From Chrysomallon squamiferum (lineage: Eukaryota > Animalia > Mollusca), in contig CM022674.1 of NCBI GenBank assembly GCA_012295275.1, forward strand, positions 16,182,001 through 16,246,000: 64,000 nucleotides of DNA, written 5' to 3'. Below the pieces are notes generated by a model. The model searched no databases. It saw only the letters and a list, made by a program, of their open reading frames with translations, and had not been told where the DNA came from. Made by a program: the position numbers and the translations under genes. Position 1 is the stretch's first letter. Each line of letters opens with the position of its first letter. This document shows positions 4,501-46,945 of the stretch, piece after piece.

Positions 4501-7136
4501 ACCGTCACTAAACATGTGACGTCACACCGTGGATGCATCTAAAAAATGAAAGCATTAAAAATCTCATACGAGACACAGAAGAAAACAACAACCTAATTCC
4601 GGAATCAATCGCTACGATGTTTTTCGGCAAAAGATTCAGAAAAGACATTAGCCATTCATTGAAGGATTGTTGATACGTGGTAACCTGCCGGTAACCTGAA
4701 CGAGAGTTCTCAACTTATTTCGATGCCTGTTTAAAGACAAATATTTAGATCATTTTGACTAGGTTATTTTAAAAGTAGCTCGCAAGCTGAAAAGTTGTGA
4801 GCACCCTTGGTGTATGGAGACTGATGTTTGTATGTGTTTTCAGTTTGAAAAATGCACCAAATTGAATGTTGATATCATTAAAACTAAATTGATCAATTAA
4901 TGGCAATGCAGTAATTTTCATGGACTTTTGTTATCGTTTACAATGATTTCTGACAACTGTTCTGTTGATTTTTGTCATGTTTATTTGTAATGTTTAGAGA
5001 AATGTGGAATAGCTTTAGTAAATCTGTGTGTTTCAGTTTGACTACAGAGCAAAGCAGCAGAACAGCTGAGAAACACAGGAACCCAGAGCCAGAACCTGCC
5101 CCAGTCAGCCCATCACCACCCCCTAAAAAGATGAAAAAGGACAAATCCAAAATGAGGTAAAAATAATTAATTAGAACTATGTATTTGTGTAACTGTATTG
5201 TGAAATTGTGTTTTTCTGAGTATTTCTAAATAATATGATCAAATACGTCTATTAAAAAAATTAGGATATTTATGTAAGCCTTGTTTTATTTGATTAATGT
5301 TAAGCAATGTTCGAGGCATTTATTTATAAATAGTATTATTTATAGTGAATATTTGGATCAATGCCTCCTGATGGAATCTCGAGCCGTTTTCATTTTAGCA
5401 GTGTTCAACACCTGATGTATGAAATAGTTTGTACTGTCTGTGGGTAGGTATAAATGAAACATCACTTGTTGTTAATAAGACAGAAGTGACTGTAGTGGGT
5501 TTCTTGTTTTGTTGTCTGACTGTTCGTAATTCTTATCTCTGACCCCATATAACAGTAAATGAAATAAGTAAGTAAAACATTTTGTTTCTTCCTCGTATAT
5601 AAAAAATCATTATATTATTTTTTACAGCTCAGCCAATATGGATGACAAAAATGAGAGTTCAGAACATTCTTCTAAAACAACAGCTGTTTCGTCCACTGTG
5701 ACAGCTGTTTCTTCTGTAGAGACTGTGGCAGCTGTGTCTCTCTTAGACAATATGTCAAGTCTATCTCTCTCTGGCATCATATCTCAGTCTTTCTTTGACA
5801 TCACTCGTATAGAACATCGTTTACAACTACCTGTGTCAAGCAGTCATGGTAATACACATATTATTTCAATGTGCTGTTAACTTTTTTAATAGGAAATTAT
5901 TAAGAGTCAACATTATTTGTATATTTGTTATAATAGAATATTTCAGTATATTGTATTGTTTATTAAAGATAAATTCTAAATTGACAAATGTACTATTTAC
6001 ATTTGTATCAATACACTGTTGCAATGAATTGTTTATTTACTTCTTAGTCATTAGTAAATTGACAATTAAAAGTTACATTGATAATGAATTAAGTTCATAG
6101 TTTTTTATGGCCTTTTTGTTTAACAGTTTAAAACAGTAAAGCAAAATACACTCTAGTTACTGTTTTGTTGCTTCATCATGACCTTTATAATTAATTTTGT
6201 ATTTACTTATATACATTTTAATACTTTAAATTAATACTTATTTCATAGCACCTGCACATAATTAGTTAAAAACATTTTTAAATGATGTATTGCTATATGC
6301 AGTAATACTTTTAGTAGATTATATTAATACTGTATTCTGTCCTTAAAAATGTATTTACTCTGTTTCACAGGTACTCAAATATTACAACTTGTACAACCAA
6401 CAGTAAACATACATAACTGTGGAAATGTTCTATTTCGAATGGGAAACAAGTTAATTAGTAAGTTGAAAACTGAAAGTTTTCTTTTTCTGTTTATGTTTAA
6501 TATATAAAAGAATAGACATTAGTGTTTTTAATAGTTTAAAGTAATACTTATTTCAGAGCTGCATATAATTAGTTAAAAACATTTTTAAATGATATATTGT
6601 TATATGCAATAATACTTTTAATAGATTGTATTAATACTGTATTCTGTCCTTAAAAATGTTTTTACACATTCACAGATACTCCAAAATTACAACTTGTAAA
6701 TCCAACAGTAAACATACATGACTGTCAACATTTTCAAATAGGAGCCGAAAACAAGTTAATTAGTAAGTTGAAAAGTGAAAGTTTTCTTTTTCTGTTCATG
6801 TTTAATATATAAGAGAATACAGATTAGTGCTTTTCTCTCAGACACTGTTAAATGAACAACATCCACACATGTGAGCACTTATGCTAAAGGAGACAAGTCT
6901 ATTTTTTTCTGAAAGATGAATATATTTGGCATTGACATTGCATGTATTTTGATGTTGAAGCAGTTTTTAATATTGATGTCACCATGTCATCACAAGAAAC
7001 ACATTTGCTAAGAAAAACTGTAAACATTCATAAGTAGCATTACAATAGAATACCTAATCAATAATTTGCCAAAACATTCAGGAATTTTATGTCATAGAAT
7101 TAAGAAGTACAGGTACATTGCGATGGTAATGTTTGC

Positions 7137-7194
<58 letters not shown>

Positions 7195-10100
7195 ATATAT
7201 ACACCTTCCATAGATAATGTGTAAATATGTATGTATGTATGTATATATTTATGTATATGTTTATATCTATATATGTATATATATGTATGTGTGTGTGTAA
7301 TAATAATAATAATATAAACAATAGTAACTATATAACAGTAGTGAGAAATAACAACAGCAGTATATTAATAATATATATTATTTCTTTTGATGTTGTGATA
7401 CAGAGTCTACCAGGTCACAGTTAAACTCAGTTGACAGGAGAGTCTATGTTGAAACAAGAGCAGAAGAAAAAGGAGTAACACTTTTGAAAAAGAATGGTGT
7501 TGTGATTGTAGTAGGATGTCCAGGTTCAGGAAAGACAACTCTAGGTCTGAACATGCTTAAACAGATACAGGAGAAAGAAAAAATAGTCTCTTACATCGTG
7601 ACTCATCACTCTGATTTCAAATACATTCCTGTGTCTAAAGACAAGCCATGTACTGTTCTCATTGATGACATATTTGGTAAAACTAATCTTGTATCAGATT
7701 TTGTGTCGTCTTGGAAACAGCTATTTCCAGAGGTGTGGAGTCTTGTTAAAGATCGGAGTGTGAGATGTATTATTACTTTAAGAAAACAAATATTTACAGA
7801 AATTATAGCCAATCTGAAGGAATTTGATCTGTTCAATGAAAATCATCTCCTTGATCTGCAGAGCGATGAATGTTGTCTGAATTATGAAGAGAAGATAGAA
7901 ATTCTAAACAAGTATCTGGAACAAAAGAATGTTACAATTGATGAAGGTGATAAAGAGACTGTCATTCAGTGTTCATGTATAGATTTAGGATTTCCTCAGG
8001 TGTGTGTGTATTATGTTAATTCAAGTGACGCACAAAAAAGAGGAGTTAAGTTTTTTGAGAAACCTGTAGAATATCTCACAAAACAACTGGACAAATTGAA
8101 AAAGGATAAATCTTCACAGATCGGTTACCTGGTTCTACTGCTGATTTTGTTCCAACAAGGCAGTCTCAGCATTGATTTACTGGACCCATTTAAAAGTGAC
8201 TCTGACAGTCACATAATGAAATTAGTAAGACAGCTAGAGCGATTCTGTCGGTGTGTAAAAAACACTGATCTCAAAGATATAAAGAAAACAGCTGATGAAA
8301 TGTGTGGTACCTATTTGAAGTTCTCTGACAATAAATACACATTTATTCACCAGTCAGTGTTTGACTCATTGTTTCTGATGTTTTCATCAGAGTTTCCAAA
8401 GAAAGCAGCAGAGTTGCTAGAAATGTGTCCTGACTCCATGTTGTTAGAATATGTTGTGACACCTGGAGTGTCTAACAAAAGTCACATTACAATGACTGTG
8501 AAACCTAACTGCTTTGATGTTCTTGCTCGGAGATTTAGTGACTTGTTGGTATCAAGCAATGCTGAAGACATTATTTCACATCCATCATTGAAAGATGAAG
8601 AGTTTGTGAAGTATCTCATAAAAGAAACATACTTTAATGATAAATTGATTGAAATACTGATTCACAAACTACACAAACATGAAAATAAATATTTGTATAT
8701 ATCATCTGTAAACGTAGAGAGTGTAGATGAAATATTTAGCAATATTTCATGTCTTCTTGACAGTTATTCAAAGTGTTCTTTTTACATGTATTTGGATACT
8801 AAAAATTATTTTGAAATTTCATCATCTGTTCAAAGTGAGTGTATTGTGAAGGGATTAAGAACATTATCAAGATTTTTCACTGAAAATCTGTGTAAAATGA
8901 AATTAACAAGTCTGAAAAAAGAACTTTTGAATATGTCTTGTTTGTTTGGTGATGAAGATGTTGTCAGAATGTTGCTACAATCAGGTGTTATTCCAGCATT
9001 TGATACACTGAGTGCAGCTGCCTCTTCAAAAACAGACAGTGTTACCATACTTAAAGAACTGTTACAATGTGAAAAAGAAATGAAATTGAATGACTATTCA
9101 GATCTTTTACTTGCATCTATTTGTTCAGGTAATTTGAAGATTGCATGTCTGTTAGCTGAAATGACAAAAAATGAGAAACACAACAATGAAATCAAGGAAA
9201 AAGCAATTAAACTGTTATTGGTTAGGTTCCATAGACAAGTAACACTTCATTCAAGTAAACGGCATTCTGGGAAGTCGAAGACTTCTGAAGATGTTGATGT
9301 AAGCCATCTTTTTAAAACATTGGTTACCACTGATGTAATAAACAAAATTGAAGACATTGCTATTATTGCTGCTTGTCAGAGTAATTCTGGTGTTATAAAA
9401 GAAATAGTAAAACTTAAACCTGATTGTTTAAATGATGACAACAGAGATAAAGTACTTTTAGCTGCAGCAGTATGGGGAGCCATTGATACAGTGAATTTTC
9501 TCATTCAGCAGAGATGTAATGATACAGATGAGAACTGGAAGAAAAGTCAAGTACTGAAAGTCGCAGTGATGTGTAACAGTGCTGATGTTGTTCAGTGTCT
9601 TCTTGATAAAGGAGCTGATCCTAATGTGAATGTAGCTGTTAATCAGAAATTGATTCAGTTGTTTAAAGATAATTTCGAACTGTTGTCTCATGGCAAAGTT
9701 AATTTAAAATTCTTGCCTTCATACACACCCCTCCACATTTCAGTTCTGCGTGGTAACTTAGATATGTTAGAATCACTAATAAAGAGAAATGCTGATGTTA
9801 ATGCAGTAAACAGCAAGGGAAAAACTCCACTTCATGAAGCTGTAAACGCAGTGACACACAGAAAGGAAATAGCTTTGTTCTTACTGAAAAATGGTGCTTG
9901 TACTGATATAACAGATGATAACAAGAATTCAGCATTGCACATAGCCTCTGAAATTGACATAGATGTTGTGAAAAAAGTAACAAAAAAGGGTGCTGAAATA
10001 AATGCAATTAACACTGAACAGAAAACTCCTCTTCATGTATCTTTGATGTGTCGCAGGCCAGAAATAGCTTTATATTTACTAAACCAAGGAGCTGATCCCA

Positions 10101-12295
10101 ATTTAACAGACAATGATAACAAATCTGTTTTACACATAGCAGCTAAATATGGAAAAGTAGAAATTGTGACAGCACTGATTGAAAAAGGTGTTGATGTAAA
10201 TGTAAAGAACAGCAAAGGTGAAACTCCTCTTTTTACAGCTCTGAATTGTGACAAATTCGATTTTTCAGAACTAGCTATGTCGTCTTATAAGACAGAAGTA
10301 GCTTTGCTTTTACTGGAACAAGGAGCTGATCCTAATTTAACAGACAATGATAACGATTCTGTTTTACACTTAGCAGCTGAACATGGAAATCTAAAAATTG
10401 TATCAGCACTGATTGAAAAAGGTGTTGATGTAAATTTTAAGAACATGCAAGGTGAAACTCCTCTTTTTACATCTTTTAAGTCTGAGCATTACAAAATACT
10501 TTTGTATTTACTAAAACAAGGAGCTGATCCTAATTTAACAGACAATCAGAAGAATTCTGTTTTACACTTAGCAGCTAAAGATGGAAATGTAGAAATTGTG
10601 ACAGCACTGATTGAAAAAGGTGTTGATGTAAATGTTAAGAACAGTCAAGGTGAAACTCCTCTTTTTACATTTCTGAATTACAACAAATATTATTTTTTAG
10701 ATGATCTAGCTACGTCCTCTGATAAGGCAAAAGTGGCTTTGGTTTTACTGGAACATGGAGCTGTTCCTAATGTAACAGACACTAATGATAATTCTATTTT
10801 ACACTTAGCAGCTAAACAAGGAAATGTAGAATTTGTGACAGCACTGATTGAAAAAGGTGTTGATGTAAATATAAAGAACAGAGAAGGTGACACTCCTCTT
10901 TTTATAGCTTTTAAGTGTCAGCATTACAAAATGATTTTGTATTTACTAAAACAAGGAGCTGATCCTAATTTAACAGACAATGATAACAATACTGTTTTAC
11001 ACTTAGCAGCTAAAGATGGAAATGTAGAAATTGTGACAGCACTGATTGAAAAAGGTGTTGATGTAAATGTAAGGAATATGCAAGGTGAAATTCCTCTTTT
11101 TACAGCTGTTAAGTTTCACCATTACAAAATATTTTTGTGTTTACTAAAACAGGGAGCTGATCCTAATTTAACAGACAATGATAGCAATACTGTTTTACAC
11201 TTAGCAGCTGAAAATGGAAATGTAGAAATTGTGACAGCACTGATTGAAAAAGGTGTTGATGTAAATATAAAGAACAGAGAAGGTGAAACTCCTCTTTTTA
11301 AGGCTTTTATGTGTCAACATTACAAAATAGTTTTGTATTTACTAAAACACAGAGCAGATCCTAATTTAACTTACAATGAAAACAATTCTGTTCTACATTT
11401 AGCAGTTGAACATGAAAATGTAGAAATTGTGACAGCACTGATTGAAAAAGGTGTTAATGTAAATGTAAAGAATATTCGAGGTGAAACTCCTCTTTTCTCA
11501 GCTCTGAATTACGACAAATTTGATACTTTTAAAGATCCAACAATATCCTTTGATAAGATACAAATAACTTTGGTTTTACTGGAACATGGAGCTGATCCTT
11601 ATTTAACAGACAATGATAACAATTCTGTTTTACACTTAGCAGCTGGTCATGGAAATGTAGAAATTGTGACAGCACTGATTGAAAAAGGTGTTGATGTAAA
11701 TGTTAAGAACAGAAAAGGTGAAACTCCTCTTTTTGCAGCTGTTCAGTTTCAGCAATACAAAATTCTTTTTTATTTACTAAAACAAGGAGCCGCATCTAAT
11801 TTAACAGACAATGATAAGAATTCTGTTTTACACTTAGCAGCTAAACATGGAAATGTAGAAACTGTGACAGCACTGATTGAAAAAGGTGCTGATGTAAATT
11901 TTAAGAACATTCAAGGTGAAACTCCTCTTTTTACAGCTGTTAAATATCAGCATTACAAAACACTTTTGTATTTACTAAAACATGGAGCTGATCCCAATTT
12001 AACAGACAATAATAGCAATTCTGTTTTGGAGTTAGCTGCTAAACATGCCAATGTAGAAATTGTGACAGAACTGATTGAAGAAGGTGCTGATGTAAATTTT
12101 AAGAACATTCGAGGTGAAACTCCTCTTTTTACAGCTGTTAAATATCAGCATTACAAAACATTTTTGTATTTACTAAAACATGGAGCTGATCCCAATTTAA
12201 CAGACAATAATAGCAATTCTGTTTTAGATGTAGCTGCTAAACATGCCAATGTAGAAATTGTGACAGAACTGATTGAAAAATGTGTTCATCTGTGA
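818..12295 (+). CDS. Spliced NLR-like gene: NLS-like exon x2, S/T linker, RHIM-like exon x2, nSTAND3-type STAND NTPase, helical region, ankyrin array; 5' end probably outside the window
   Basis: AG/GT-bounded exons 818-937 (phase 2-2), 5037-5156 (2-2), 5628-5848 (2-1), 6371-6457 (1-1), 6676-6762 (1-1) and 7404-12295 join in one open frame. The last exon reads KSTRSQLNSVDRRVYVETRAEEKGVTLLKKNGVVIVVGCPGSGKTT (Walker A), VLIDDIFG (Walker B) and FIHQSVFD (winged-helix motif), then ankyrin repeats. Confidence 0.85.
1091..4809 (-). mobile_element. Decayed hAT DNA transposon in an intron, with pseudogenised transposase (~1940-4380)
   Basis: Ends 'cagaggtgtccaa' (1091) and 'gagcacccttg' (to 4809) are imperfect hAT-type TIRs. 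Minus-strand remnants: GREWLLIIHCSAHRIE (CxxH), KASGTRF, and the dimerisation-domain-like EIILAIALASASVETGISALNR. Many stops and frameshifts. Confidence 0.75.
2283..3055. repeat. ~390-bp tandem duplication inside the hAT transposase remnant
   Basis: 2283-2674 and 2675-3055 align (for example 'catcttcgttcagcgtaactggaaatg' occurs twice). Confidence 0.85.
6371..6457 (+). CDS. Paralogous exon with diverged RHIM-like core (GTQILQLVQPTVNIHNCGNVLFRMGNKLI)
   Basis: cacag|...|gtaagt, 87 nt, phase 1-1; part of a ~305-bp tandem duplication that includes the flanking intron. Confidence 0.75.
6676..6762 (+). CDS. Exon encoding RHIM-like motif (NTPKLQLVNPTVNIHDCQHFQIGAENKLI)
   Basis: cacag|...|gtaagt, 87 nt, phase 1-1. 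Matches the RHIM pattern of RIPK3 (VNIYNCSGVQVGDNNYL) and RIPK1 (IQIGAYNYM). Confidence 0.8.
7404..12295 (+). CDS. Large terminal exon: STAND NTPase plus ankyrin repeats
   Basis: Uninterrupted ~4.9 kb frame; acceptor 'gatacag' ends at 7403 and is in frame with the 7484 ORF; P-loop GCPGSGKT, DDIFG, many TPLH/SVLHLAA..G..EIV..L...G ankyrin units; stop TGA 12293-12295. Confidence 0.95.
10088..12290 (+). repeat. Coding tandem array of 11 near-identical 198-bp units (2 ankyrin repeats each), three with 36-39-bp inserts
   Basis: GADP-equivalent codons at 10088, 10322, 10520, 10757, 10955, 11153, 11351, 11588, 11786, 11984, 12182; spacings 234, 198, 237, 198, 198, 198, 237, 198, 198, 198. Confidence 0.95.
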
Positions 12296-13956
12296 AGCAA
12301 TTCATTGTGATGAAGAATTAAATACAGTGTAAATTTGTGTAACTATATTGCTGTGTAGTCTGGTGTATATCTAGGTACTGTAAATTGTTTCTATTGAGAT
12401 ATTCCATTACTGTACTGTTACACTCTGCTGTTTCTATTCAAATATTGTATTCATATATTGTGTAGTTTGTGTTTCTATACAAATGTTGTTACCATATTTT
12501 ATAGCTGCTGCATCTTTAAGCATTTCTTAGTCTCTATTGTATCTGAACATAACAAGAACTATTATAATAACTGTGGCTTTATGAAAATTTCACTTCATTT
12601 TAATTTCATTGAAAGAGTTTATGGTGTTTATTGCACAATTCCATGAAAAAGATGTTAAGAAATGTTTGGTTGCCTAGCAATAATAAAACAACAGTAATAT
12701 TGATGTTAATTTTGAATAGGTTTTTGAGAAAGTGAAAAGTCAGCCAGTTTTTAAATCAGATTTGTTATATTATTCATGATGATTTGATTATTACTTATGT
12801 TGCTATTAGACTGTTTATGTGTGAAAATATCTGCTAAATAGGATGTTATAATTAAAGTTGTGTTTTAAAGTAGAGTGCAGAATATTTAATGTATAGTTTT
12901 TATTTGACAAAATTGTTTTGCATTACTAAATAGTTTACTATGTTTATATTAAGAAAAGTACTATAGTAATGTTGTGTGAAAGTGTTTTTGTTTTTTGTTT
13001 TCTCCTTTACACAATAGTTCTGTAATACTAAATCAAATTTGAATATCTTTGTACTAAGTAAATTTGGATTTTCATTTGGAGTTTATATACATTTTTGTTT
13101 TACAAAATGTTTCTATTCATGCTTTTAATATATAAATGTATATGGTAAAATAAAATGTAATTTTAAATATATATATATATATATATATGTAAAACACACA
13201 AACACACATACACATTTAAGTTAGAGATAGATTATTTTTTTAATAAATTGTTCTGTGGTACTAAATGTTTATTATGTTTAGAATTTTAGATATATAATGT
13301 AATATAGTCTATTTTTTACTGTTATTGTCATACAAAAGAAAATATGAGCATATTTCTCTGTCAATTAGAAGACACGTTCATATAATGTTTGCATTTCACT
13401 AAATTATCATTAGAAAATACTAACAAAATTTATAAAGCAAATGTAAATCTTCATTCATCTGATAGTTTTTACATATAGCTTTAATAATTACAAAATAGTG
13501 GATAATAAAGTAAATGTAAGTTTTAAGTAGGAATATTTATTTAATAATTGAGAAATAGTGAATAATTAATAAAATAAATGTGATTTTAAATTAGAAACAT
13601 GTTTGGCTAATGTTTACATTTATCTCTTTGACACTGAACTGTAAGTGTGGATTTAAACTGATTTAATTTGAGATAAAATTTTAATACTATCTTTATTTTA
13701 TCTGTCAATAAGTTGTATCGAACAAGATTTTTTTTTAAATTTTTTTATTTATTTATTTATTATTATTATTTTTTTTTTTAGGTGATTAGTTATTTTTATT
13801 AAAAAACAATTTTGAGGAATGTGTTGGAGTTACACTGAATGATTTTTTTGTATAAATATCTTGTATTTATTTTGCCTGTCTTGATGATTGTTTCCTTCCA
13901 GAAATTATTTTCAATTAATAATGATTTATTTGTATTGTGTTTGTTGCCATTATTAC

Positions 13957-14019
<63 letters not shown>

Positions 14020-15119
14020 AGCTTTGTAATGATTTACTTTTAATTTACTTGTTTGTTTTTCAGTGATGGAAAACAGAAAGTATTGTCTAATGTGCTAACC
14101 TTTGCTGGTGATGCCACTGTTACATAACTGTATGAAATGTGTCAGTTCATGTATTGTTTTTAAGACACTGATACAAATTTTTTTGGATATATATATTGTT
14201 TATAATACTTGGCTATTGTATTCAATTAATATTTTTCATACATTTATTTTAAATATATATTTATTTGTTTATTTATATTATTATCATTATTATTAATTGG
14301 GAATATATTTATTTATTCTTACTTCTATGTATTTAATCATTAGAATATCCTGATTCAATTTGAATAGCAAATACTTGTATATGTTTCTAATTACAATGAT
14401 TCTTTTTTTCTTATTTAATTTGCATGATAGAATGTTTTTACTATTTTTATTTTGTGAATCAACTAACTTTAGTTCAATCTTCAACTTACATTTTTTAATA
14501 ATTAACATGTTTCTTTAATTAATGGATGAAAATGGACAAATGGTGTTTGTCTATCACATGTTACACATCCCATTTGTTCCATACCTAGAAGTAACAGTTG
14601 AAGTGTAATTAAGTCAATTCCAGTAATATTAGTGTAATAGTTACAGTGCTTTTCATTTGATTTTGTTACTGAATACAATGATAATAAAGAATAAAAAATA
14701 AAAACTTTATATGCAGTAATAATAATAATAGAAAGAAGGAAAGAAAAAATCTTAGGAGAATATCTTCTAGTACAGAAAAGTAAAAATCCTAATTTTTATA
14801 TAGTTAATATATATACATGTTACATATTTTGTTTGTTTTGTATATATAGCTGGACTTTTCATTGTTGCTGACTGGCTTATGAGATTATTTTGTGATAAAG
14901 TGCCACAACAAGTTTTCTCTAGAATTTTTACAATGATAATGAGAATGACATTGATAACGACATCATTTTCATAAACTGTAGGATTACAGTACAGATATAT
15001 AATAACAAAATTAAAATGCACATGCGTGGATGTTTAACATGGAGGACATAACTCTCATATATAGTTCTTATTAAAACACAGCTTTTTTAATACAAATATA
15101 TTTTTTACTGTTAAACAAA

Positions 15120-16780
15120 TTATTATACGAAATTATGTTTGGATGTCTCATATATTTATCAGGTATATCTGTTCTTGCATTTAATAATATAGGATCATTA
15201 CGTTCAAATATATAGTGATAGTCATATCCAATTTTGTTAACATTACAAATATGACATTTTCTGTTTTTAATTAGAATATCAGAACATTGTCCGGTTTCAA
15301 TAGGAAGTTTAGCATTCGCGGTTCCAAATTTACATAAGACATTAGCATTCTTTTGAGGCAGAAAAGTAAGACAGTTTTCTAATTTCAGTTCATTTTTAAT
15401 TTTTGTTTATAATTAATACCTTTTGGAGATGTTTCAATTTATTTTTTCCATAATTGTTGATGTTGATCATGTAATATTTTGGATATCGTTTCACGTAATT
15501 ATTTAACATTATCAAAGATGTGATATGTTAAACATCAATCATCTAAAATATTTTTTTACAAATTTGTTCCAAAAAGAATCGATAGCATGTATTAAATAAT
15601 ATAGTTGTGAGGAAATCTTGTTTTGGGTTTTGCAAATTAGGTTCCTTGAAAAGGTTATCATTCTTACTTTTATAGAAATACAAAGGAATACCGTCCTAGA
15701 TCATCATAGATCATAAAACCAGGGAGACGTTTATTAACATTTAGTAAATACTTACAAAATTTCATATGCAGTCTTTTTATTAGTTATATATTTGTAAAAC
15801 CCCATATTTCACAACCATACAATAAATCAAATATTCAGTGGATCAAGATATTATTCTGACGACTTTTAGCTATTAGGCTATACATAGCTTTCATTGCTTT
15901 TTTATACAGTTATCTTACGTTGTAAATGAATAGACCGTTTCTTGTCAAATGCATGCCCAGATATTCATATTTATCTATAATCTCTCCATCAAATTCAAAT
16001 ATAGAATCACTAGTTTTTCTCTTTTTACTGAATATTCAGTTTCAAGCTGTTCAAAAGCATACACTTTATAGCCAAGAATATTGATGTTATCAGCCTTATC
16101 TGTTTTTGTTTCAACTAAACATATTATATCATACTTACTAATGGTTTCAGTACATATAGTATCTCTGAGCTTACTTACAAACCGCACACGTTAATCTCTA
16201 TCCTTTTTAAAACATAAGAGCTTACTCCTTTATGATTTTTGTTTGGGGTGTTTTTTACAAATGGGAGAGGTTTTGCGCTGACTGAATTGGCTTGTCTTGG
16301 TGAAATTTCAAATCTCCGAGATCTTTTTTATTCCTTTCAAACTGTTTGTTATTATAATTCATACCCGTTTCCACATCTTGTACTGTTTTCTTAATATCAG
16401 TCATTTTACCACCGATATATTAGACAGTTATTTCCATACTATTCAGTCGTTTTTCGATGATGTCCAATTTCTCCAGTTTATCACACATTATATCTAACTT
16501 TGTAGTCAAAGTATCTGATTTTATACTGACATCTTGATTGTGCACAACTAGTGAAATTAAACCAGAATACTGACCGTGAGATCCATAGTGTTGTCCACAT
16601 TGTCCATACTGTGACTGCTGAGACTGCTGGGTGGCTGCTTACTGTTGAATTGGTGTTGACTGATAAAATGGTGCAGATGAACATTTAAGGTCATTTGACT
16701 TTTGTGTATTTTGACATCTTCAGTATGATGACTTCTTGACCAGCTTGGCTACTGCTTACCTTTAATTTCTCTCCACTTAT
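15120..16780 (-). mobile_element. Internally deleted non-LTR retrotransposon (LINE) remnant
   Basis: Minus strand: endonuclease start KYDIICLVETKTD..INILGYK jumps almost directly to post-RT sequence (LYGCEIWGFTN) and a C-terminal RKCHICNVN..G..YHYIFE zinc knuckle; the RT core is missing. Confidence 0.75.
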
Positions 16781-17386
16781 ATTTTCACTCTTATTTGTTT
16801 TCTCTTTTTACCTTTTCTCATTGCATGCTACATACAAACGTATCTTTAGCAATAATTTACATTGATAAATGGATTAAATCCCTTTAATACTAATAAACAT
16901 TATATATTTTCACAAACAGATAAGAGACACGACTTTCATTTCCACAAGATGCTTTTGTTTTCACTTTCAGGAACAGGAAATCAGATTTACAAAATACTTG
17001 GTCTGATTGGATGTGCAAGTCACGTGATAGTGCGGTTGTATTAAGCTGTTGTTTTTATTGGGATTAGCGACGTGGGAAATAACTAACGTTCCAGTATCAC
17101 CAGTAATTTAACTGCTTTGTTTAAACTTCGCTATTTTTTTAGTTTTGGCTTCTGGTAAATCGTAATAGGGATCAATTGGTTAATTATTTCCTAAGCCGAT
17201 TGTGCAACAATTGGGAAGATGAATCCATTATTGTATACCAGATACAGGACATCTGATTACCAGTTAATTCGACCATGACCTTTCTTTCTTATATGACAAA
17301 TGGATGTGTAACAAAAGTGAGAGTATCCATAAATGTAAACCTTGATTTTATTATTTTGAATACAAAATGAGAAATAATTGTTATTA

Positions 17387-17434
<48 letters not shown>

Positions 17435-19344
17435 TGGGGGGGGGACCAATATAACTTAGCTAAATGAGTAAATACTAAATTTGAATGTTGTTGAAATATA
17501 CTAATTTAGAGTTTAATGTTTCACTAGTTTCTTTTAGATTTTTGTACTATTTCATCATAATGGTAATTATTTGAATACTAAATGAGAAATATAATAACAG
17601 TTATTAATGTGTGTGTATATGACAAATATAACAGTTAAATGAGTAAACACTAAATCTGAATTTTATTGAAATATATTAATTTAGAGTACTGTTTCACTAA
17701 TTTCTTTTTGATTTTTGTATTATTTCATTATAATGGTAATTATTAATACGGAGTGCATTGTAATGTTGTTAATAATTAACATAATAAATATCTTTTATAA
17801 AATGTAATTACTTTTGTTTTCTTTATTAGATGAGCGATATTTCCTGTATTCAAGAAAAACACACTACAATGGAATAATGCATTGTACGAGTTCTTGTGAC
17901 TCCTCTGACATCCACCAGTGACATAGTGTTTGTAAGGGAGACAGCAGTCTGCTCTTTAATATGTAACCTTAAGAATTATATAAGCTAACTGACGGAGAAA
18001 GCAATCTCCTGTTTAATATATAATAGATGTTAGATTTTTCTTAAAACTTGTATAAGCTATGGTGAGGTGTTGTTTAGGGGACCCCTGACACCTGTGTCTG
18101 CTAAAGTTCCAACCAGTCTCGACTCCATCTGCGACATCTATGTTAAAAGAGCCGCTATGTGGTCTTTCCTAGGTAATAAAAGCAGAGATCGTGTTTTGTT
18201 TGGGGCAATCAGTTTTTACACCGTACAGAACAGACGTGTGGCTAACCCTCAGATGGACAGTTACACAGATCCAGCTGACTCAGATAACTATAAGTTTTTA
18301 ATGCTCTGTTTGACCAACTGAAAGGTAGTTTGATGTGGTTTTCTAACAAATATCATTTAACTATATATAGTTTGAAGTAGAATAATCATCAAAGTAAACT
18401 GTAATTATTATCTCTAAAACAGCGGGTGAGAATAGCAAGACATTTGATCATCTTGCTAAGTAGTAGATTATATTCATAGACTTGCATATTCAAATACATC
18501 TTCGGATGTGCTATGTTACCTTGAGGGATAAACACATTTAATATCCCCCGTATGTTCACTTATGTGGTGAGAGTCATTTTGTGGCAAGAAACTGTTTGTA
18601 ACCAGTCGTGTAAGCGTTCTAAGTTTACATGGTAAATAACTATTATTAGATCGGATAATACATACAGTTTTAAATCTAAAATTGTGTTGTTGTTTCTGGT
18701 GATTTAAAATTGGCTAAATATAAATTTATATATGATCTTGTTCCCTGAATACCGTCACTGCCGAGCCAAATCGGGTAGCTATCTACCTGATACAGGGAGG
18801 TCTGTATGTATAGTTAGTGGTAATTTGGGGGAGGAGTGTTACGGCTGTTGCGGGGTTCTAATTTGGTTACGTGACGACTGTGTTAATTACGGGTCGCATA
18901 CGACTGCGTTAGACGCCCCGTAGCAGTGTTACATACCAGCGAGTCTGGTAACTCTACTAATGTACAAGTAAATTGTGGAATGATTTAACTAAAAAACCAG
19001 ACATAGTTTATTAGGTTAATTTCCTCATACAGGGTAATAAGTAAATTATTCATGTATATTCTTACATTTTCCTGCATTTTTCACATGGACATATTTCTGT
19101 TCATTGTATATTTCAATGTATAGTGTCTAGGGTTGGTCTATCTTATATGTAATGTTTGGTTTGTGTCAGTATGTGCGAATGCTGATGCGAAACAGTAGCA
19201 CAGAAAATATCGCGGTCGTCCACCAAAGTGTTGACAGTGTTCAAGGTAAAGTTTTGGACGTTTAAAGTATTATTCATGCAACGAATGTATTGAAAATTAT
19301 GTATGTTCTGACATTTTTTCATTGTTCAGGTCAATGCATTTTCT

Positions 19345-19880
19345 AATCAAGAAGTCTCTAAACATATCGTGAAGGCAAGTAACAGCAGTGAACAGTACCT
19401 GGGTTTGAGTGAAGTAACTAAACATATGAACACAAATAACAATAGTGAACAGCACCTGTGTTTAAGTGACGCCACTAAAACGATTAAGGCCAGAAACAAC
19501 AGTGAACAGTACCTGGGTTTGAGTGAATTGACTAAACACATCATGATAACAAGTAACTATAGTCAACAGTACCTGGGTTTGAGTGAAATCACTAAACATA
19601 TCATGATAACAAGGAACTATAGTCAACAGTACCTGGGTTTAAGTGAAGTCACTAAAGCTATGAAGGCCAGTAACAACAGTGAACAGTACGAGGGTTTGAG
19701 AGAAGTCAGCAAACATATCATGAAGGCAAGTACAACAGTGAACAGTACGTGGGTTTGAGTGAAGTCACTTAGGATATCATGAAGGCAGATAACAACAGTG
19801 AACAGTACGAGGGTTTGAGTGAAGTCAGGAAACATATCATGAAGGCAAGTAACAACAGTGAACAGTGCCTGGGTTTGGAA
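19345..19880 (+). repeat. ~60-bp minisatellite, about 9 copies (NNSEQYLGLSEVTKHIMKAS-like)
   Basis: Repeated 'aacagtgaacagtacctgggtttgagtgaagtcactaaacatatcatgaaggcaagt'; only about one unit at the paralogous site 46070-46145. Confidence 0.9.
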
Positions 19881-21720
19881 ATTAAGAATTGTGAAATGAA
19901 ACCTGTAAATGACATAAAGGTAACATATTTACAAACATGCAGATCATTGTTATCATTTGACGACAAGAGTATAATAAACAGTGTATCATTAAAGATATTA
20001 CGTTTTAGTATGAAAAACTTGAGTGAGAGACACAGACAGCGCTTCATTGATTAGAATACAATAGCGATGCAAACATTGGTATATTTTGTTAGCACTCAAA
20101 TTGATGGTATAACTGTAAATGCAGATGTCATAAACCACATTCTTCTACATGATAGCTGCCTGAATTGCAGCCTCATCAATGTATTCATGTCTGTTCAAAA
20201 AAAAACAAAAAAAACATCTGAGAAATCAACATATTCATATAGTAGATTGTGGTTGGTTTGGTCAGAAGATTTTAGTTAATGGTGACAGAGATCAACCAGA
20301 CGGACTTTTGTTAATTACTCTGAAATGCCAGAGAGATTGATAGAAGTAACTGTGGGGTATATGTTTGTGCTATAGCAAAAGCTATTTTAACTAATAAGTG
20401 TATAAGTCAAGAGTAAGACAGAAAATAAATTCAAATAAGGTTAGAGAGAGACACTTTATACAAAAAGAGAGACAGAAAAATCATCTTTGCTGTTGAATAC
20501 TTTTGAGAAGATTAGGGAGTTCCATGAATCTATTTATAGATTTCAGTTTTAGTTATGTTTTCAAAGTCTGGTAGTAAAACTCAGCTGCCTGAAATAAAGA
20601 TAATATTTCAATTTCAAAATAAAATTACTAAAACAGGTAGTCACAGAATAAGAAAAACAAGTAGAAAAAAACAACAACATTCTGGCTTTTTCCTAAGACA
20701 CTGTATATTTTGTTAAATTTCCTAACTTACTACAATCAATCATGAACCATTCTGCAAGGATGAAGCTAAAAAATTCTTATCACTGGACTAATATTAAATT
20801 ATTGAAAAAAGGTTCAGTGTGTTTAGCTGCCGTTTTACTTATTTCAAAATGATCACTTTCCTTCCTGACAAAGTGTGAAGATTTTCGCTAAAATAAAATG
20901 TATAAAAACCTCAGAATGTTTTTTAAAATATGAGCAAAATATTGAAAGAAAGAAAACACACACATGCGTATGCCCTCAAGAAACGCACACACACAGCAAA
21001 ATTCACATTTCAACAGTACTATAATGAGTAATCCACATATTTCATCTAACAGGTTCTTAGAACAAACCCCTGCATTAACTTTTATTCAGAATTAATTATA
21101 GAGATGTAAAATTACTGCACTGTCTGTTTAATCAATCTTCTAACATACTTACACTTTTTTGTTAAAATATGTAAATAAAACATAACAGACTGAATAAATC
21201 ATTAAAAGGTGGTCATATCTTTAGTCTAGAAAGCGTTTTTTCTTTGCACAGTCAGTGCATGACATCACAATAAATGCGATAATATTCGTAAAGAACATAA
21301 TTATATTTCTGATATCATAATTTATTATTAACAAAGGTCAGTGATTTCATTTTTTAAATTAAATAATCATTTGGTTCCACACAAAATGTGCTTAAACTAT
21401 ATTTTTACATTAGTATAATACTAGCTTAAATATTTATTGTTAGGAAAGTGTGGTTTCTGTTAACAAATCAAAACAATATCTAGAAATTACATTAATCATA
21501 TTTATGTACTTTGTTCTTATCATCAAAAAAATAAATTTGAAAACCTAATATCCAGTTCCTGCTTCTAAGAAGATTACTTTGTAGTATTGTTTTTCTCTAA
21601 CCAGGTTTTTACTTTCTTACTGCTCCACATTTTAACTGAGAAAACATCAATGGTGGTCAGAACGGGTGACAGAGGTGGCTCACAAACATGCTTTTTCTTC
21701 TGTAAACAATAATAATAATA

Positions 21721-21771
<51 letters not shown>

Positions 21772-22171
21772 GTAATAACAATAAGATTAATATCTATAAT
21801 AACAACATCAATAACAATAATAATAACAATAATAATCCTAGAATCCCTATATCATATTTAATTTAAAAGTTGGGTTTTACTGGTATGTTGAAATGTCTGT
21901 ATACATAAATCACCATAAATTTAAAGAAATTCAAAGACAGTTTAACGTAAAAGTATTTCTTATTGTTGGATGATATAAAGCAAGACAAAAATGTTGAGAA
22001 TATAAAAAAAAAAAAAAAGACAAAAAACAAATTGCCAGAATTTAATGGACAAATATAATTATTGAAATTATATGTTAAACTATTTTGTTGTTTTATACTT
22101 TCAGTTGACATTACCTTAGCTTACCCATTCCTTCATCTGCCAGAGTTTGAAATTATAGAGATGGTTGACAG

Positions 22172-22303
22172 CAGGGCCTCCAAGAGAAATTTTGAAACGC
22201 TATACAAGACCCCTTTTGGGCCTCGAGACATAACAGATATAACACAATGAAAGAAGCATACGCAGATCAAAGTACCGACTGGACCACACCCTCATAGGCC
22301 CTA
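22172..22303. mobile_element. Short hAT-like MITE (longer paralog at 49075-49267)
   Basis: TIRs 'cagggcct..' and '..taggccct(a/g)'; flanking 8-mers gttgacag and gctggcaa differ only by three transitions (possible decayed TSD). Confidence 0.55.
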
Positions 22304-23210
22304 GCTGGCAACAACGTGATTGTGAGCAAACAGAAGTACCAGGATTTCAGATGCTGTATACACAAAATATGATATCTATCTCCAGTAGGTGCAGTACTGC
22401 TCTTTTTATAAAAAGTAATCTTGCAATATATGTAAAAGTTATAATGTCTGAATGAACTTGTAGTTACGTCAGCAAAATATGAAATCATTTGATTAACCGG
22501 TTGGTTTTAATACCACGTTTCTGACGATCACTGTGTAATTCAGAACACAGACAATGGAAGTATTGAACAATTTGATGACACCTACACTTTAGAACTACAT
22601 AATATTTATCTTAAAAGAAAAAGTATTGACACCAAGAAAAAGAAGATAATTTTGGCAATACACTTTGCAAGTTGTTTAAATATACTAATTTACATATTCC
22701 AAACAGGCATGTTGGTGAATACAGATATTTAAGTAACTTTACCTGTAAAAACTCTAGTTTTGTGGATTACTGTAAAATCTAAACAGAATGTAAATATTGT
22801 TAATGAAAAATATATTGATTTACACATTTTTGAGAAACCAAAAAGTGGGACAATAGTAAAACAAGATGATTTCTGTAATAATATTTATATTAATACAGTG
22901 CATGAACTAAACTATCAGTTAAATAATAACGAGTTTAATATTATAGATGTCATATTTAATAATGAATTAATTGATAAACTCACTAATTTGTTTGTTTATC
23001 CCAAAGATAAGAAAGCCCTACAGGAGACTAATCATAACTTATTCTGCCAGCACTTGCTCCACTGATTACTCCGTTTAAAAAATAAATACTGACCTACACA
23101 GAATAGGAAACAATTGTTATTATTTTTCTATTTTACACCTTTCCCACCTTAAAATGTTTGCCATTATTCGCAATGCAAAAACATTTAATAATAATTTAAA
23201 TTATAGAATA

Positions 23211-23328
<118 letters not shown>

Positions 23329-24073
23329 GAACACATTACCGATCTCAGTACTGAACTGCCTCTGTTACTGAGATCCCTCAGTAGTAACTGAGCCAAAAGT
23401 ACCCGAGTTTGAGCGAAGTCAGAGAAAAAGAACAGAGAGGCTGGTAGGATATGAGAATTACTATACTGACCACAACCTGTCCTTGATGATGTCTGATACT
23501 GCATCAGCTGTTACATTCAAGTGAGAGGGCACATACTGCTCTGTCTCAGTGACAGGATCAGAACTAAATGTTAACAAAACTGATTCTCATTATTGTGGAG
23601 ATCTTTAGGGGAACTTAATACCTGAGTTTCGGCTATGACAGTGGGAAAATCTATGTTGTCTGGACGATCACCAGACTGGATATTTCAAGATATTCCTTGG
23701 GATAATTTATTATGATATAATCTTTACAAACAAATGAATATACTTAAACACTGTACATAACAACGTTAGATTTCGGTGAATATAAACGAAGCAAACGACC
23801 AATATAATTATTGCGATCAACGTCAGGGTAACATATTTTGATAGCTACTAGGCATGCGCAGCGCGCGCACCTGAGAAACAAGGATCGATAGCTTTTCCTC
23901 GCATCCACAAAGCATGGCCACTTTTAAGTGAAACAGGTAATTGTTAATACTGTATTTTAAAATTCAAAAGAAACAGTTTCTATTTCTACAAAAACAGTTT
24001 TTCAAAGTGGGATCTAGTGCTTGCCAATAAAGTTTTGTCTGGATCTTGTTAAGAGTCAATTTAGACCACCTAA

Positions 24074-24430
24074 GTTGTCAAGTTCGTACTCTTAGGGATT
24101 TGGTTTCTGGCAATTCTAGCGGGGATCTTACCATCTATAGAAGCCACCAACGGCAGCCTTGCAAGTGGAGACCATTGCAGATTCCTTCCGTATGAACTGG
24201 GTGACGGCTTTGCAGTGTTTTTCGTTATTCTCACGTGTTTCTCTCTGTGTATCTGTTTCATATGCACCCTGCATACCATGCTGTTGCCGTCGACGTCGTC
24301 GGTGGCAAACAACGGAGTGAATCAGATGGCACATTCGAAATACAAGGAACTAACGTTTTCCTAAGATCTTTGTCGATTGTTAATGTGTGTGTTCACCATC
24401 TGTGCTTGCAGCAACCATCTTCTGTACATT
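24074..24430 (+). pseudogene. Rhodopsin-like GPCR fragment (approximately TM4-ECL2-TM5, degenerate TM6)
   Basis: VVKFVLLGIWFLAILAGILPSIEATNGSLASGDHCRFLPYELGDGFAVFFVILTCFSLCICFICTLHTMLL; ends at donor gtaagt 24431; no start or upstream helices. Confidence 0.65.
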
Positions 24431-26899: not shown

Positions 26900-29400
26900 T
26901 TCTCATCTTTGACCTGCACGTTTGTTATTGCTGCGAGGTTATATGGATTTCTATTTATACGTTTTGTTGTACGCTGACCCGGTGTCAGCAAGGCCCTTGC
27001 TACGTTTTGTACATGATGTGATGCTGTTATATAATTTGCGAAAAATTAATTTGGATCATCATCCGCACTCGATGATGGTCATTTCTGGCACTGTCTGACT
27101 GATGTTCAACCCCATTCAAAAGCACCTTTTTATATCCTTCCATCTTGATCCAGCATTTCAGTGACTCTGTACATTTAACTTCTCAGTGGTCTTGACTCTT
27201 TTTCCTGTCCTGGAGGTTTCAGTTCCTCAGCTATAAAAGAGAATCAATAAGCTGTGATATGATGTTATAACTTCCATAATTTCATTAAACTGTTCAACTA
27301 TGACAGTTGCCTAAGTGACTTTTCTTCCATCACTCTGGAAAACTTTTCTGATTGTTTGTAGAACGTCTGTATGAGTAGCAGCATTTGTCAAAGCAGCTTC
27401 CATTTAAGTAGACGTCTTTCCTTGAAATGTCTTCCTGAATAGATCACAGACATTTTTATTGTGTGGCGCTGAACAATATTTCACATCGAAATTAAATGCT
27501 GCCAGCTGAGACACCCGTCTCTGCTCCTAATTTTACGGTACTGAGATGACTTTATGGATTGTTCTCTTGATATAGGGTGAATTTATGTCAAAGAAGATAA
27601 TCTTTAAACTGTTCAGTCACAACCCAATTCAGAGCAGCAAGCTCTAACTTCATGAAACTGCAATTATTCATGCTCTTCTCAGTGTGTCTTAACAAACGGC
27701 TTGCAGCTGCAGTCACTTTGCTTTGCCCCTTCTTCTCCTGTGACTCTACCCGTCCAGGGCTTTGAAAAAATGCATCAGTTTCCAGAATAAACGGTTCACC
27801 GATTTGAGCTGAATATAACTTTTTTCTTTAATGTTTCGAAACCTTGTTGACAACTCTCATGCCAAGCACTGTTTAACAATGATTGATTTTTCTTATCTCG
27901 TAACCTGTTCGCCAAAGAATTCAAAGGTCTTGCAATATGTAAGCATCCTTTAACATGTCGTCTATAGTAACTGGTAAACCCGAAAAACAACATGAAGTCC
28001 TTTGCTGTCTTTGGAATTTTCCACTCAGCAACTGCTTTTATTTTGTCTGGATCTGTAGCTACCCCATCTCTAGATACCATATGTCCTCGATATTTCATTT
28101 CTTTCATAAGTAAACAGAATTTGGTTGGTTTCAGTTTGAACCCATGCTGTTTTAATATTATAATACCTGTGTTTGTCTCTGTATGTCCAAATCAAATAAA
28201 TTTACAGAAAGTACAGGAACATCTAAAATGTCAGCTCTCTGAAGTAATGTTTCAGGAGAGTTTGAAATGTGGCTGGTGCTGTTGGTAAACCAAAAGGTAT
28301 TTGACTGTATCAAAACAAACTCATTGGAGTCGTGAAAACTGTGTTGTCCTTGTCTTTATCCTGAACTGCAACCTGGTTGTATCCATTGGCCATATCCAAT
28401 AGAGTGGTTTTCAGCAGCCTGTGTGTAGTCCATACACAAACGAATTGTGCTGTCCATTTTTCTCACTATAAGAACAGGAGATGCATATGGGCTTTGGCTA
28501 GGTCGAATTACATTTTGTTTTATATATTTCTTGATGCGCCCTTGAACTTCCTGATACTCAATGGATGAAATTCTTCAGTATGTGTGTGCGTATGTGATTT
28601 CTTACTGTGTCAGAAAAGCCCAAATCAAGGCCATCTTTAGCAAATACATCAGATTATTCAGACTGAATCTAAGACACTTTTCGTCTATTAGACTGTCTGT
28701 AGACTAGTTCTCCAGCTCTGATGTTGAGGCCTGTTAGTCAATTTCCTTAAGACATCCTTACCAAGGTCTTCAGCAAACACTTCTCCACATTCGCTAATAA
28801 CATTCATCCTTAATATACATGCTACTTGTTCCCTCCGTAGACGTGGGGTTCGTTTTTGTGTCTGTTCACAGCAAAGATTCCTCTATCAGGAACTAAACTG
28901 CCTTGTTCTTCGATGTTCAAGTTAATATATTCATTGAAGGAAATATCCTGTCCGCTGGCAGCCTTAAGCGAGAGCCATCCTTGTTTTGTAAGGAGTTCAG
29001 TATACACAGTGGAGCAACGTTATTGTGTAAGAAATCCTCGTTTACTACTGACCCAGTATTTAACAAAATCAACTTGCACACCTACGACGAGCAGTTGAAC
29101 TATAGGACAGTCAGAAACAGTTCTGCTAAATTTTCTCCTGGAAACAGTATGAGGCTGCGTTTTTTCTGTACACTCTAGACAATAACAGAATCATCTCAGT
29201 GATTCATCTTCCTTCTGTGATCGTCCAAAAAAAATTCTGAAATTAATGCACTGATGATCTAACTTTAAACATCTTTTGCAAAATCTGGTAAACCACTTCT
29301 GGGTTTTCTTGGTCTTATTGTGATCTCAACCTAATTTCTTTTTTCGCTTTCAGCTTCAAAGTGAGCTGATATAAAACTCGTCTGCTCCTTTTCTGTAAGT
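26900..29400 (-). mobile_element. Decayed Ty3/Gypsy LTR-retrotransposon pol region
   Basis: RT C-terminus GHMVSRDGVATDPDKIKAVAEWKIPK..FFGFTSYYRR (27796-28107); RNase H ETDA and KLELAAL..VVTEQFKDYL; protease-like LLNTGS near 29060; many stops; LTRs not identified. Confidence 0.85.
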
Positions 29401-29537
29401 ATTGTTTTGAAGTTTTAAAAGGGATCCAGGTTACAATTTGTTGATTGTAAGTAATTTTTCATTTTGTTTAATAATCTGAGCGTATGTTCTACACAGATCT
29501 TCTTTATTATCTCTGTTCTTCTTTAAATTCGATTTGA

Positions 29538-29583
<46 letters not shown>

Positions 29584-29613
29584 TATTATTTATTATTTCA
29601 AAGCTCGATAACA

Positions 29614-36589
<6,976 letters not shown>

Positions 36590-39827: not shown

Positions 39828-40946
39828 TTGTTGCTACTTTTCAGTTACGTATGTGAGAGATAGATTATTTTTTTAATAAATTGTTCTGTGGTACTAAATT
39901 TTTATTATTTTTATAATTTTAGATATATAATGTAATATAGTCTATTTCTTACTGTTATTGCCATACAAAAGAAAATATGTGCATTTTTCTTTTATTAATT
40001 AAAAGATACATTCATATAATGTTTACATTTCGCTAAATTATCATTAGAAAATACTAACAAAATGTCAAAAGCAAATGTAAATCTTCATTGATCTAATAGT
40101 TTTTACATATAGCTTTAATAATTACAAAATAGTGAATAATAAAGTAAATGTCAGTTTTAAGTAGGAACATTTAATAATTGTGAAATAGTGAATAAATAAA
40201 ATAAATGTGATTTTAAATCAGAAACATTTTTGGTTAATGTTTACATTTATCTGTTTGACACTGAACTGTAAGTGTGGATTTAAACTGATTTAATTTGAGT
40301 TAAATTTTAATACTGTCTTTATTTTATTTGTCAATAAGTTGTATCAAACAAGATTTTGTTTTTATTTGTTTTTAATTTAATTAATTTATTTATTTATTTA
40401 TTTATTATTATTATTATTCTTTTGGTGATTAGTTATTTTTATTAAAAACAATTTTTAGTAATATATTTGACTTATACTGAATGATTGTCTTGTATAAATA
40501 TGATTGTTTCCTTCAGGAAATTATTTTCTATTAACAATGATTTATTTTTATTGTGTTTATTATAATTATAATTATTATTATTATTATTATTATTGTTATT
40601 ATTACAGCTTTATAATTGTTTATTTTTAATTTACTTGTTTGTTTTTCAGTGATGCAAAACAGAAAGTATTGTCTAATTTGCTAACCTTTGCTGGTTATGT
40701 CACTATTACATAAACTTTATGAAATGTGTCAGTTTATGTACTGTCTTTCATACACTGATACATTTTTTGTTTTGATATATATATATATATATATTGTTTA
40801 TAATACTTGGTTATTGTATTCAATTAATAATTTCCATACATTTATTTTATCTTCATACACTGTATAAGAAGAAAAATATTTATTATTATATTTTTTTTTT
40901 TCATATATTTTTATATATTGTTTTTATTTTTTTATTTTTTTATTTA

Positions 40947-41006
<60 letters not shown>

Positions 41007-46569: not shown

Positions 46570-46945
46570 ATGGAAACATTGGTATATTTTGTTAGCACTC
46601 AAACTGATGGTATAACTGTAAATGCGGATGTCATAAACCACACTCTTCTACATGATAGCTGCCTGAATAGCAGCCACAGTAATGTATTCTTGTCTGTACA
46701 ACAAAAACAACTGAAAAATCAACATATTCACGTGTTAGATTGTGGTTGGTTTGGTCAGAAGATATTTGTGAACGGTGATAATGATCCACCCATATGGACA
46801 TTTCACGTAATAGAAAGTAAAAGTAAAAGAATGTTTGGTTATGAATACGTTGTTGTTTCTTTGAATGAAAGAAACATTCACTGGAAAATAACCGTAACAG
46901 ACGTATCAAAAAAAAAGTACTGTACTACTGTGATTCATTTGGAGG
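46570..46945 (+). pseudogene. Ulp1/SENP-like (peptidase C48) SUMO-protease fragment; truncated paralog at ~20067-20290
   Basis: VNADVINHTL...IHVLDCGWF...YEYVVVSLNERNIHWKITVTDVSKK then, after a frameshift in an A-run, VLYYCDS; matches the C48 HW...D..K...YYDS pattern. The catalytic Cys region is not seen. Confidence 0.65.

Follow-up and report, generated by a model that had tools for sequence, protein, structure and literature searches.

Receptors that relay a signal by seeding amyloid have been reported from fungi and filamentous bacteria. The fungal NWD2/HET-S and PP-motif PNT1/HELLP systems contain receptors with no folded effector, in which a short amyloid-type motif stands on the N-terminal side of the STAND domain and sensor repeats. 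The PP motif resembles the RHIM and cross-seeds the RHIMs of RIPK1 and RIPK3 (PMC12881547). In bacteria, Bell/NLR pairs with the RHIM-like BASS3 carry such a motif at the N-terminus of a protein resembling NOD-like receptors (NLRs), with a G-phi-Q-phi-G signature (10.1101/2020.01.06.895854). Among animals, RHIMs are present in mammalian RIPK1, RIPK3, ZBP1, and TRIF and in molluscan RIPK1, and the amphioxus (Branchiostoma) protein BF82280 combines a RHIM, at the position usual for CARD-like domains, with NACHT and repeats (PMC4262963). Here we analyze a gene of the mollusc Chrysomallon squamiferum in which a small exon for a RHIM-like motif precedes a long exon for an nSTAND3 NTPase and ankyrin repeats. 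It is located within 64,000 nucleotides (nt) of contig CM022674.1, the whole stretch analyzed and called the window hereafter; all coordinates are positions within it, and all exons of the gene are on the + strand.

The gene is of the expressed type and encodes, in this order, a disordered leader, a RHIM-like motif, an nSTAND3 switch, and ankyrin repeats. By analogy with the fungal systems, we consider it probable (roughly 0.6) that its product is an NLR-like receptor that would signal by RHIM-type amyloid seeded onto a separate RHIM-bearing partner, for example molluscan RIPK1.

Compared with the fungal systems, which have the same short motif in front of STAND and sensor repeats, the locus belongs to an animal, employs nSTAND3 instead of NACHT or NB-ARC, shows no adjacent effector gene in the window, and carries its motif, known here from sequence alone, on an exon of its own that is duplicated and follows a leader of about 70–150 residues. 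BF82280 likewise has its RHIM before STAND and repeats; however, it is a chordate protein with NACHT, and a single predicted example, whereas the molluscan protein has nSTAND3 and belongs to a family with several motif classes. The G-phi-Q-phi-G signature of BASS3 is shared, although the better of the two exon copies has His at the first Gly and the window scan found no Bell-like neighbor gene. With RIPK1, RIPK3, ZBP1, TRIF, and molluscan RIPK1 the motif shares the Pfam RHIM match and the hydrophobic register, but none of these proteins is a STAND receptor and the tetrad described here begins with Phe. The nSTAND3 NTPase and the layout of effector, NTPase, and repeats recur in bacterial Avs5 (10.1101/2025.07.08.663546) and in molluscan HEPN-, death-, and caspase-nSTAND3-ankyrin proteins; in contrast to the present protein with its short motif, these possess an N-terminal enzyme or folded adaptor.

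The RHIM-Like Exon

Exon 6676–6762 (copy 2; 87 nt, phase 1-1, AG/GT ends) matches Pfam RHIM (PF12721) over model positions 2–21 of 22 with 19.9 bits and an E-value of 5.3e-4, the curated cut-off of the family being 20.0 bits. A mutational scan of RIPK1 and RIPK3 describes four nucleating residues spaced 0, +2, +8, and +10 in front of a Gly, which in RIPK3 correspond to V450/I452/V458/V460/G461 (10.64898/2026.02.19.706818). The core of copy 2 (6708–6752) has this register, with V6708, I6714, F6732, I6738, and G6741 at 0, +2, +8, +10, and +11, one position being aromatic and not aliphatic; Q6735 and N6750 complete it. In copy 1 (6371–6457, AG/GT ends), hydrophobic residues are kept at 0, +2, +8, and +10, and Leu and Arg replace Gln and Gly. 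Judged by its residues, copy 2 is RHIM-like, not a canonical RHIM. The core [VIFLM]Q[IVL]G has three occurrences across all six frames of the window, one in exon 6676–6762 and two antisense to the STAND exon. A search of solved structures with the 28 residues of the exon gave 0 matches at E ≤ 10, and the ESM Atlas yielded no usable match for a 45-residue frame.

Both exon copies belong to a segment of about 307 bp that is duplicated in tandem (6216–6834); between its two halves, flanking introns are 92% and exons 79% alike. The introns differ at 15/189 sites and the exons at 18/87 (Fisher p = 0.004). The changes in the exons are almost entirely non-synonymous (15.8 against 1.2 synonymous differences; proportions per site, pN and pS, of 0.24 and 0.065; intron divergence 0.08), and 12 of them cluster in one stretch of 24 nt over the motif core, as in 3 of 20,000 shuffles. 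Ten of the 28 residues differ between the copies, and four hydrophobic positions survive in both. For the other duplicated exon pair of the gene, of 120 nt, pN is 0.043 and pS 0.081. The divergence of the core would fit diversifying selection or a conversion tract from another paralog, which two sequences cannot separate.

An earlier note, made from the letters of the window, had described exon 6676–6762 as RHIM-like; the profile score and the hydrophobic register bear this out, and its translation of the exon matches as written. It had spoken of RHIM exons in the plural, which goes too far given that Pfam recognizes only one of the two as RHIM-like and that copy 1 lacks the Q and G.

The Gene Around the Motif

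The motif exons are preceded by a Ser/Thr/Val-rich exon (5628–5848; AG/GT ends, no Pfam family, in-frame Met at 5638), which is covered by RNA contigs of related copies, and followed by a single long last exon (7404–12295; AG acceptor, about 1630 open codons, stop at 12293–12295). The junctions 5848^6371, 6457^6676, and 6762^7404 are all in phase 1, and the joined model forms one open frame down to the stop. In the sequence, therefore, the exon model of the earlier note stands, with its AG/GT ends, phase-1 joints, and in-frame fusion to an intact nSTAND3-ankyrin exon. Frame 7391–12295 is one long open frame of the window and holds nSTAND3 at residues 19–177 in addition to the ankyrin repeats.

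Two further exons of 120 nt, copy A (818–937; phase 2-2, Pro/Lys-rich, in-frame Met at 912 and 933) and copy B (5037–5156; in-frame Met at 5131 and 5152, with 7 differences between the two copies), are likewise bounded by AG and GT and continue in frame into the downstream exons; therefore the gene begins upstream of 5628, the position at which the finding of the earlier note starts. Contig joints 938->5038 (X1 and X4, two of the RNA runs described below) and 877->5626 agree with this extension. The two exons reside in a duplicate pair of segments, 575–1052 and 4811–5273, which are 86.5% alike; the sequence between these segments, about 3.7 kb, resembles decayed mobile DNA and has an internal repeat of 392 bp. 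Apart from the RHIM match of copy 2, the Pfam scan found no domain in the exons before the STAND exon.

The nSTAND3 domain (7445–7921) is assigned with 89.4 bits to PF20720, far above the cut-off of 27.2, and has an intact Walker A (7514–7537), an acidic Walker B, and the conserved G, G, GK, and D columns. Behind it, a helical and winged-helix part (7922–8683) is predicted by an AlphaFold2 model of 7403–8800 (68 sequences, mean pLDDT, the predicted local distance difference test, 89.2). Fold matches by Foldseek and VIA-align include MalT, the NB-ARC of NRC1, NOD2, NLRP2, Apaf-1, and SAMD9. The top ones, MalT (Z 14.0, 321 residues aligned, root mean square deviation 5.2), NRC1 NB-ARC (Z 13.9), and a STAND-TPR protein, reach Z 13.6–14.0 over 272–321 residues; the scores of plain AAA+ proteins are only slightly lower, over shorter alignments. 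In the model, the succession of NTPase, helical, and winged-helix domains is that of a STAND protein. PADLOC gave weak matches only, over the NTPase region.

The ankyrin repeats extend from about 8930 to 12280 and, from about 10080 onward, form alternating two-repeat units of high internal likeness; Pfam recognizes 22 Ank stretches in the long exon, so that the nSTAND3 and ankyrin assignment of the earlier note is confirmed. The order of upstream motif, STAND module, and ankyrin repeats is thus tripartite. Among the 25 of 34 Pfam families shown for the gene there is no NACHT or LRR, and the product does not qualify as a canonical animal NLR (NACHT-LRR). At positions that we take, following the DARPin convention, to face the ligand, pN exceeds that of the framework in both repeat types (0.28 against 0.085 and 0.19 against 0.125), in comparisons that are pairwise and not independent.

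Transcripts of Related Gene Copies

Four RNA runs of one study (X1–X4) contain only 6–9% of the sampled words, and therefore their contigs represent related gene copies and not this locus itself. Contigs were placed at 82–85% likeness with short sides (18–49 letters for the RHIM-exon joints), and joints at such likeness and length can be false. Exon 5628–5848 is joined to a copy-2-like exon (5845->6675) in X2, X3, and X4 and to a copy-1-like exon (5844/5845->6372) in X1, X2, and X3; since the RHIM-exon copies are 79% alike, a paralog with one such exon can map to either. Neither 6457->6676 nor a direct 6762->7404 is present among the 15 of 19 contig joints shown. Contigs with listed letters that bridge 6762 to the STAND exon (X2, X4) insert an extra exon of 33 nt, whose omission preserves the reading frame, and two contig rows connect exon 5628–5848 and the STAND exon through intervening letters that are not specified. 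Of the splicing proposed in the earlier note, a RHIM-type exon behind exon 5628–5848 is thus found in related copies, whereas its two-exon model gives way to transcripts with one RHIM exon and a 33-nt linker exon.

Some X2 transcripts run from the RHIM exon, behind 6759–6763, into another extra exon, for which the window contains no match at ≤3 mismatches. Judging from these contigs, the linker after the RHIM exon differs among paralogs. A candidate remnant of the linker exon near 6839–6870, the best match in intron 6763–7403, was at chance level (224/2000 shuffles) and was rejected. Loose contig ends before 823 in X1, X2, and X4, read by eye, have six additional letters that contain a start codon, preceded by an in-frame stop in two of the three runs. 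In related genes the 120-nt exon (818–937 at this locus) is likely the first coding exon, and their N-terminus would then lack a folded domain.

Among the 40 best-supported rows of differences, related transcripts show changes at 6720, 6726/6727, 6729, and 6732 that lead to His, Gly, Asn, and Val; all five listed changes have a common contig depth within X3 and likewise within X4. The RHIM exon of these transcripts is nearer to the canonical G-x-V-Q form than copy 2 is.

Relatives and the Position in Front of nSTAND3

A HMMER search recovered 999 representatives at E ≤ 0.001, of which the best 150 were listed. The closest full-length relatives are from Gigantopelta aegis (42–45% identity, one more at 37%), followed by Haliotis (27–33%). 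The STAND start could be placed in 161 of 164 stored proteins, and at least 25 residues precede it in 98. In a FastTree tree of 88 STAND modules, which gave long-branch warnings and was used just to place the window's protein, the latter forms a clade (support 99) with six proteins of Gigantopelta, among which four bear a RHIM-like motif.

A domain scan of 28 chosen relatives found, in the slot before nSTAND3, a caspase (P0033), a death domain (P0063), SAM (P0135, P0136), HEPN (P0088, P0140), Ig (P0122), and a DED below the cut-off (P0161), and in other relatives just a short beta-prone stretch. Across the family, this slot is interchangeable with folded effectors. The architecture given in the earlier note, amyloid motif, nSTAND3, ankyrin, holds in its order, and the motif occupies the slot that in relatives is filled by death, caspase, SAM, or HEPN domains, but the exon model of the note omits the upstream exons and differs by the linker exon from related transcripts.

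A RHIM-like pattern within 150 residues upstream of STAND is found in 9/98 relatives (shuffled mean 0.78; 0/500 shuffles reach 9), and a pattern with the published spacing fits 6/88 non-redundant relatives (shuffled mean 1.69; 6/1000). Motif carriers include Gigantopelta, Haliotis, Solemya, Potamilus, Sinanodonta, Argopecten, Pecten, and Ylistrum. De novo motif discovery in 81 N-termini, made without a RHIM prior, returned the HEPN motif first, followed by four classes with 5, 8, 4, and 7 members. The classes of 7 and 8 score 64.9 and 89.8, compared with 24.4–42.8 in 10 shuffled sets. The former shows the RHIM-type register and, with two added members (9 rows), requires at least 4 changes on the tree. 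The classes of rounds 1 and 2 did not match the window's exons (ranks 1064–6770), and that of round 3, a repeat-like stretch, was left out of the count.

Several relatives deserve mention in their own right. P0010, P0012, P0013, P0018, P0019, P0021, and P0023 (Haliotis where named), one clade with support 100, share a conserved beta-rich stretch of about 40 residues directly before nSTAND3, apparently two pseudo-repeats without Pfam match and a candidate for a separate motif class. P0002 and P0003 from G. aegis have a hydrophobic, membrane-anchor-like start, a long acidic linker, and a Gly-rich stretch before nSTAND3. In the bivalve clade P0068, P0069, P0101, and P0153 (Solemya velum, support 100), a Q-(I/L/V)-G core precedes nSTAND3 in 4/4 proteins, twice in P0101. 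The caspase-nSTAND3-ankyrin protein P0033 (Haliotis rufescens) is an all-in-one version nested among motif-bearing relatives.

Neighboring Features of the Window

Of 236 stop-free frames of the window, 115 were scanned; they yielded pieces of pyridoxal-phosphate decarboxylase, seven-transmembrane, PAN, and RNase H families only. A pyridoxal-dependent decarboxylase gene has exons at 29527–32306 (+; PF00282, best 52.2 bits), a PAN-domain frame is located at 54265–54648 (+; 27 bits), and a reverse-transcriptase RNase H fragment at 27591–27827 (−). A large segmental duplication, 13217–24164 and 39850–56869, is about 84–96% alike in collinear pieces and includes 7tm_1-like fragments at 24074–24361 and 56479–56928.

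Proposed Mechanism and Alternatives

By analogy with fungal NWD2 and PNT1 (PMC7889193, PMC12881547), the ankyrin repeats would bind a ligand and thereby release the STAND domain. STAND domains would oligomerize and cluster their motifs, whose ends lie some 20 residues ahead of the NTPase, or about 31 with the linker exon, and the clustered motifs would nucleate a cross-beta stack. The stack would template or recruit an adaptor such as molluscan RIPK1, with kinase, RHIM, and death domain, and adaptor recruitment would drive NF-kB signaling or cell death. Rapid divergence of the core between the two exon copies would shift the choice of seeded partner, or retire one copy. Molluscs do possess a plausible class of partner in RIPK1: the zebra mussel protein depends on its RHIM to activate NF-kB, and RHIM-bearing RIPK1 homologs occur in other spiralians as well (PMC12119088). 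A survey annotates amphioxus and starfish RIPK1 as being without RHIM (PMC11507063), and therefore invertebrate partners vary.

Several findings weigh against the proposed seeding of a RHIM-bearing partner, and they are set out here with the alternatives. The first alternative, which we regard as unlikely, is that the motif is a real beta-arch acting on the receptor itself or on sister receptors, by self-assembly, auto-inhibition, or as a decoy of RHIM signals, with no separate death effector. The 115 frames scanned contain no RHIM, death, kinase, or MLKL-like match, and neither these frames nor the scan of the window for the core reveal a RHIM-bearing effector, in line with what the earlier note had stated. 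A protein-database search with both exon copies gave 119 candidates and none at E ≤ 10, a search that is weak owing to exact-word seeding and a query of 47 residues. Within one species, moreover, the motifs of paralogs are so unlike one another that one conserved adaptor should hardly be able to serve them all, and Pirk provides an example of a RHIM-like negative regulator in flies (PMC13506858). In contrast, the interchange of the slot with caspase, death, SAM, and HEPN domains points to signal output.

A second alternative, somewhat more doubtful still, sees in the exon a fast-evolving, beta-prone piece of disordered linker whose likeness to the RHIM is due to chance or decay and which has no amyloid role. 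The Pfam score of copy 2 is borderline, 0.1 bit below the cut-off; copy 1 lost Q and G and has no Pfam RHIM match; and the canonical tetrad (V/I)-Q-(V/I/L/C)-G is absent from both copies, as copy 2 starts with Phe. The natural variants LQIG, CQIG, TQIG, and VQFG still support ZBP1-dependent death, and FQIG does not appear among the variants (PMC12119088). With pN above intron divergence, the core is not under purifying selection between the copies. Short motifs are easily matched by chance in AT-rich DNA, and the bare spacing pattern has 42 matches in the six frames of the window. Among relatives, the pattern found in 9/98 was written after the N-termini had been inspected, the strict tetrad (2/98; 87/500 shuffles) and a relaxed core (5/98) are not enriched, and Pfam RHIM matches 0/19 hand-picked stretches and 0/13 full-length proteins. 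Copy 2 ranks 22 of 58,303 with the relatives' de novo profile, but at 4.6 bits against a cut-off of 9 bits. Because of the missing tetrad enrichment, the missing Pfam matches, and this low profile score, the motifs of the relatives appear RHIM-like at most. However, chance or decay does not account well for related transcripts that are nearer to the canonical RHIM and not further from it, for the four hydrophobic positions kept in both copies despite 10/28 changed residues, or for similar motifs that exceed the number in shuffles and appear in four or more separate parts of the tree. 

The least probable alternative accepts signaling via the motif for the family but takes this locus for a decaying or rearranged copy, with no working motif in its own transcript. 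It would agree with RNA support that stems from related copies in one study, with the lack of a contig spanning the whole model, with the absence of an intact 33-nt linker exon from intron 6763–7403 in a sequence search, with a start codon apparently deleted, by eye, from both 120-nt exons, and with the 3.7 kb of other sequence between these first exons, yet it is opposed by the stop-free exon of 4.9 kb with its intact Walker A, by small exons that all keep AG/GT and frame, by in-frame Met codons at 912, 5131, and 5638, by a frame that is kept when the 33 nt are skipped, and by contigs in X2 and X3 with only 3–4 differences over 6675–6759.

Significance for Molluscan Immunity

Since the amphioxus RHIM-NACHT-repeat protein was in print as a prediction in 2014 (PMC4262963), an animal RHIM-STAND-repeat protein is not wholly new. 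Our literature search, which covered few subscription journals, found no report of a RHIM together with nSTAND3 or in molluscan STAND proteins, so that the novelty supposed in the earlier note would hold for the nSTAND3 and molluscan version and not for the general idea. Passages on nSTAND3 found in this search deal with bacterial Avs5 and with conservation of repeats. Those of PMC8195603 describe oyster STAND, HEPN, and ankyrin architectures without the term RHIM, and a RHIM-nSTAND3-ankyrin architecture is not described in those of 10.1101/2020.01.06.895854, PMC13506858, and 10.64898/2026.06.13.731801. The last of these mentions annelid proteins with RHIM and P-loop NTPase, which may bear on novelty.

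On a more tentative level, molluscs may run a fungal-style amyloid signaling: in a large nSTAND3-ankyrin family, diverse short amyloid motifs, RHIM-like ones and several classes unknown to Pfam, would replace folded effectors, be shuffled as small phase-1 exons, and be driven apart after duplication, and the two exon copies described here would represent two seeding specificities. According to a 2022 survey, NLR-linked amyloid signaling appears specific to fungi and bacteria (PMC9815663), and a 2021 commentary lists as an open question whether the RHIM is the sole animal signaling amyloid (PMC7889193). Both points are within reach of existing assays, for which the locus and the relatives named above offer short peptides together with molluscan RIPK1 as a plausible partner. 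If the proposed signaling is true, the protein would be a receptor upstream of RHIM signaling in invertebrates and would unite necroptosis-type with NLR-type immunity in a single animal protein, and it would account for part of a large and as yet unstudied family of receptors in abalone, scallops, and mussels.

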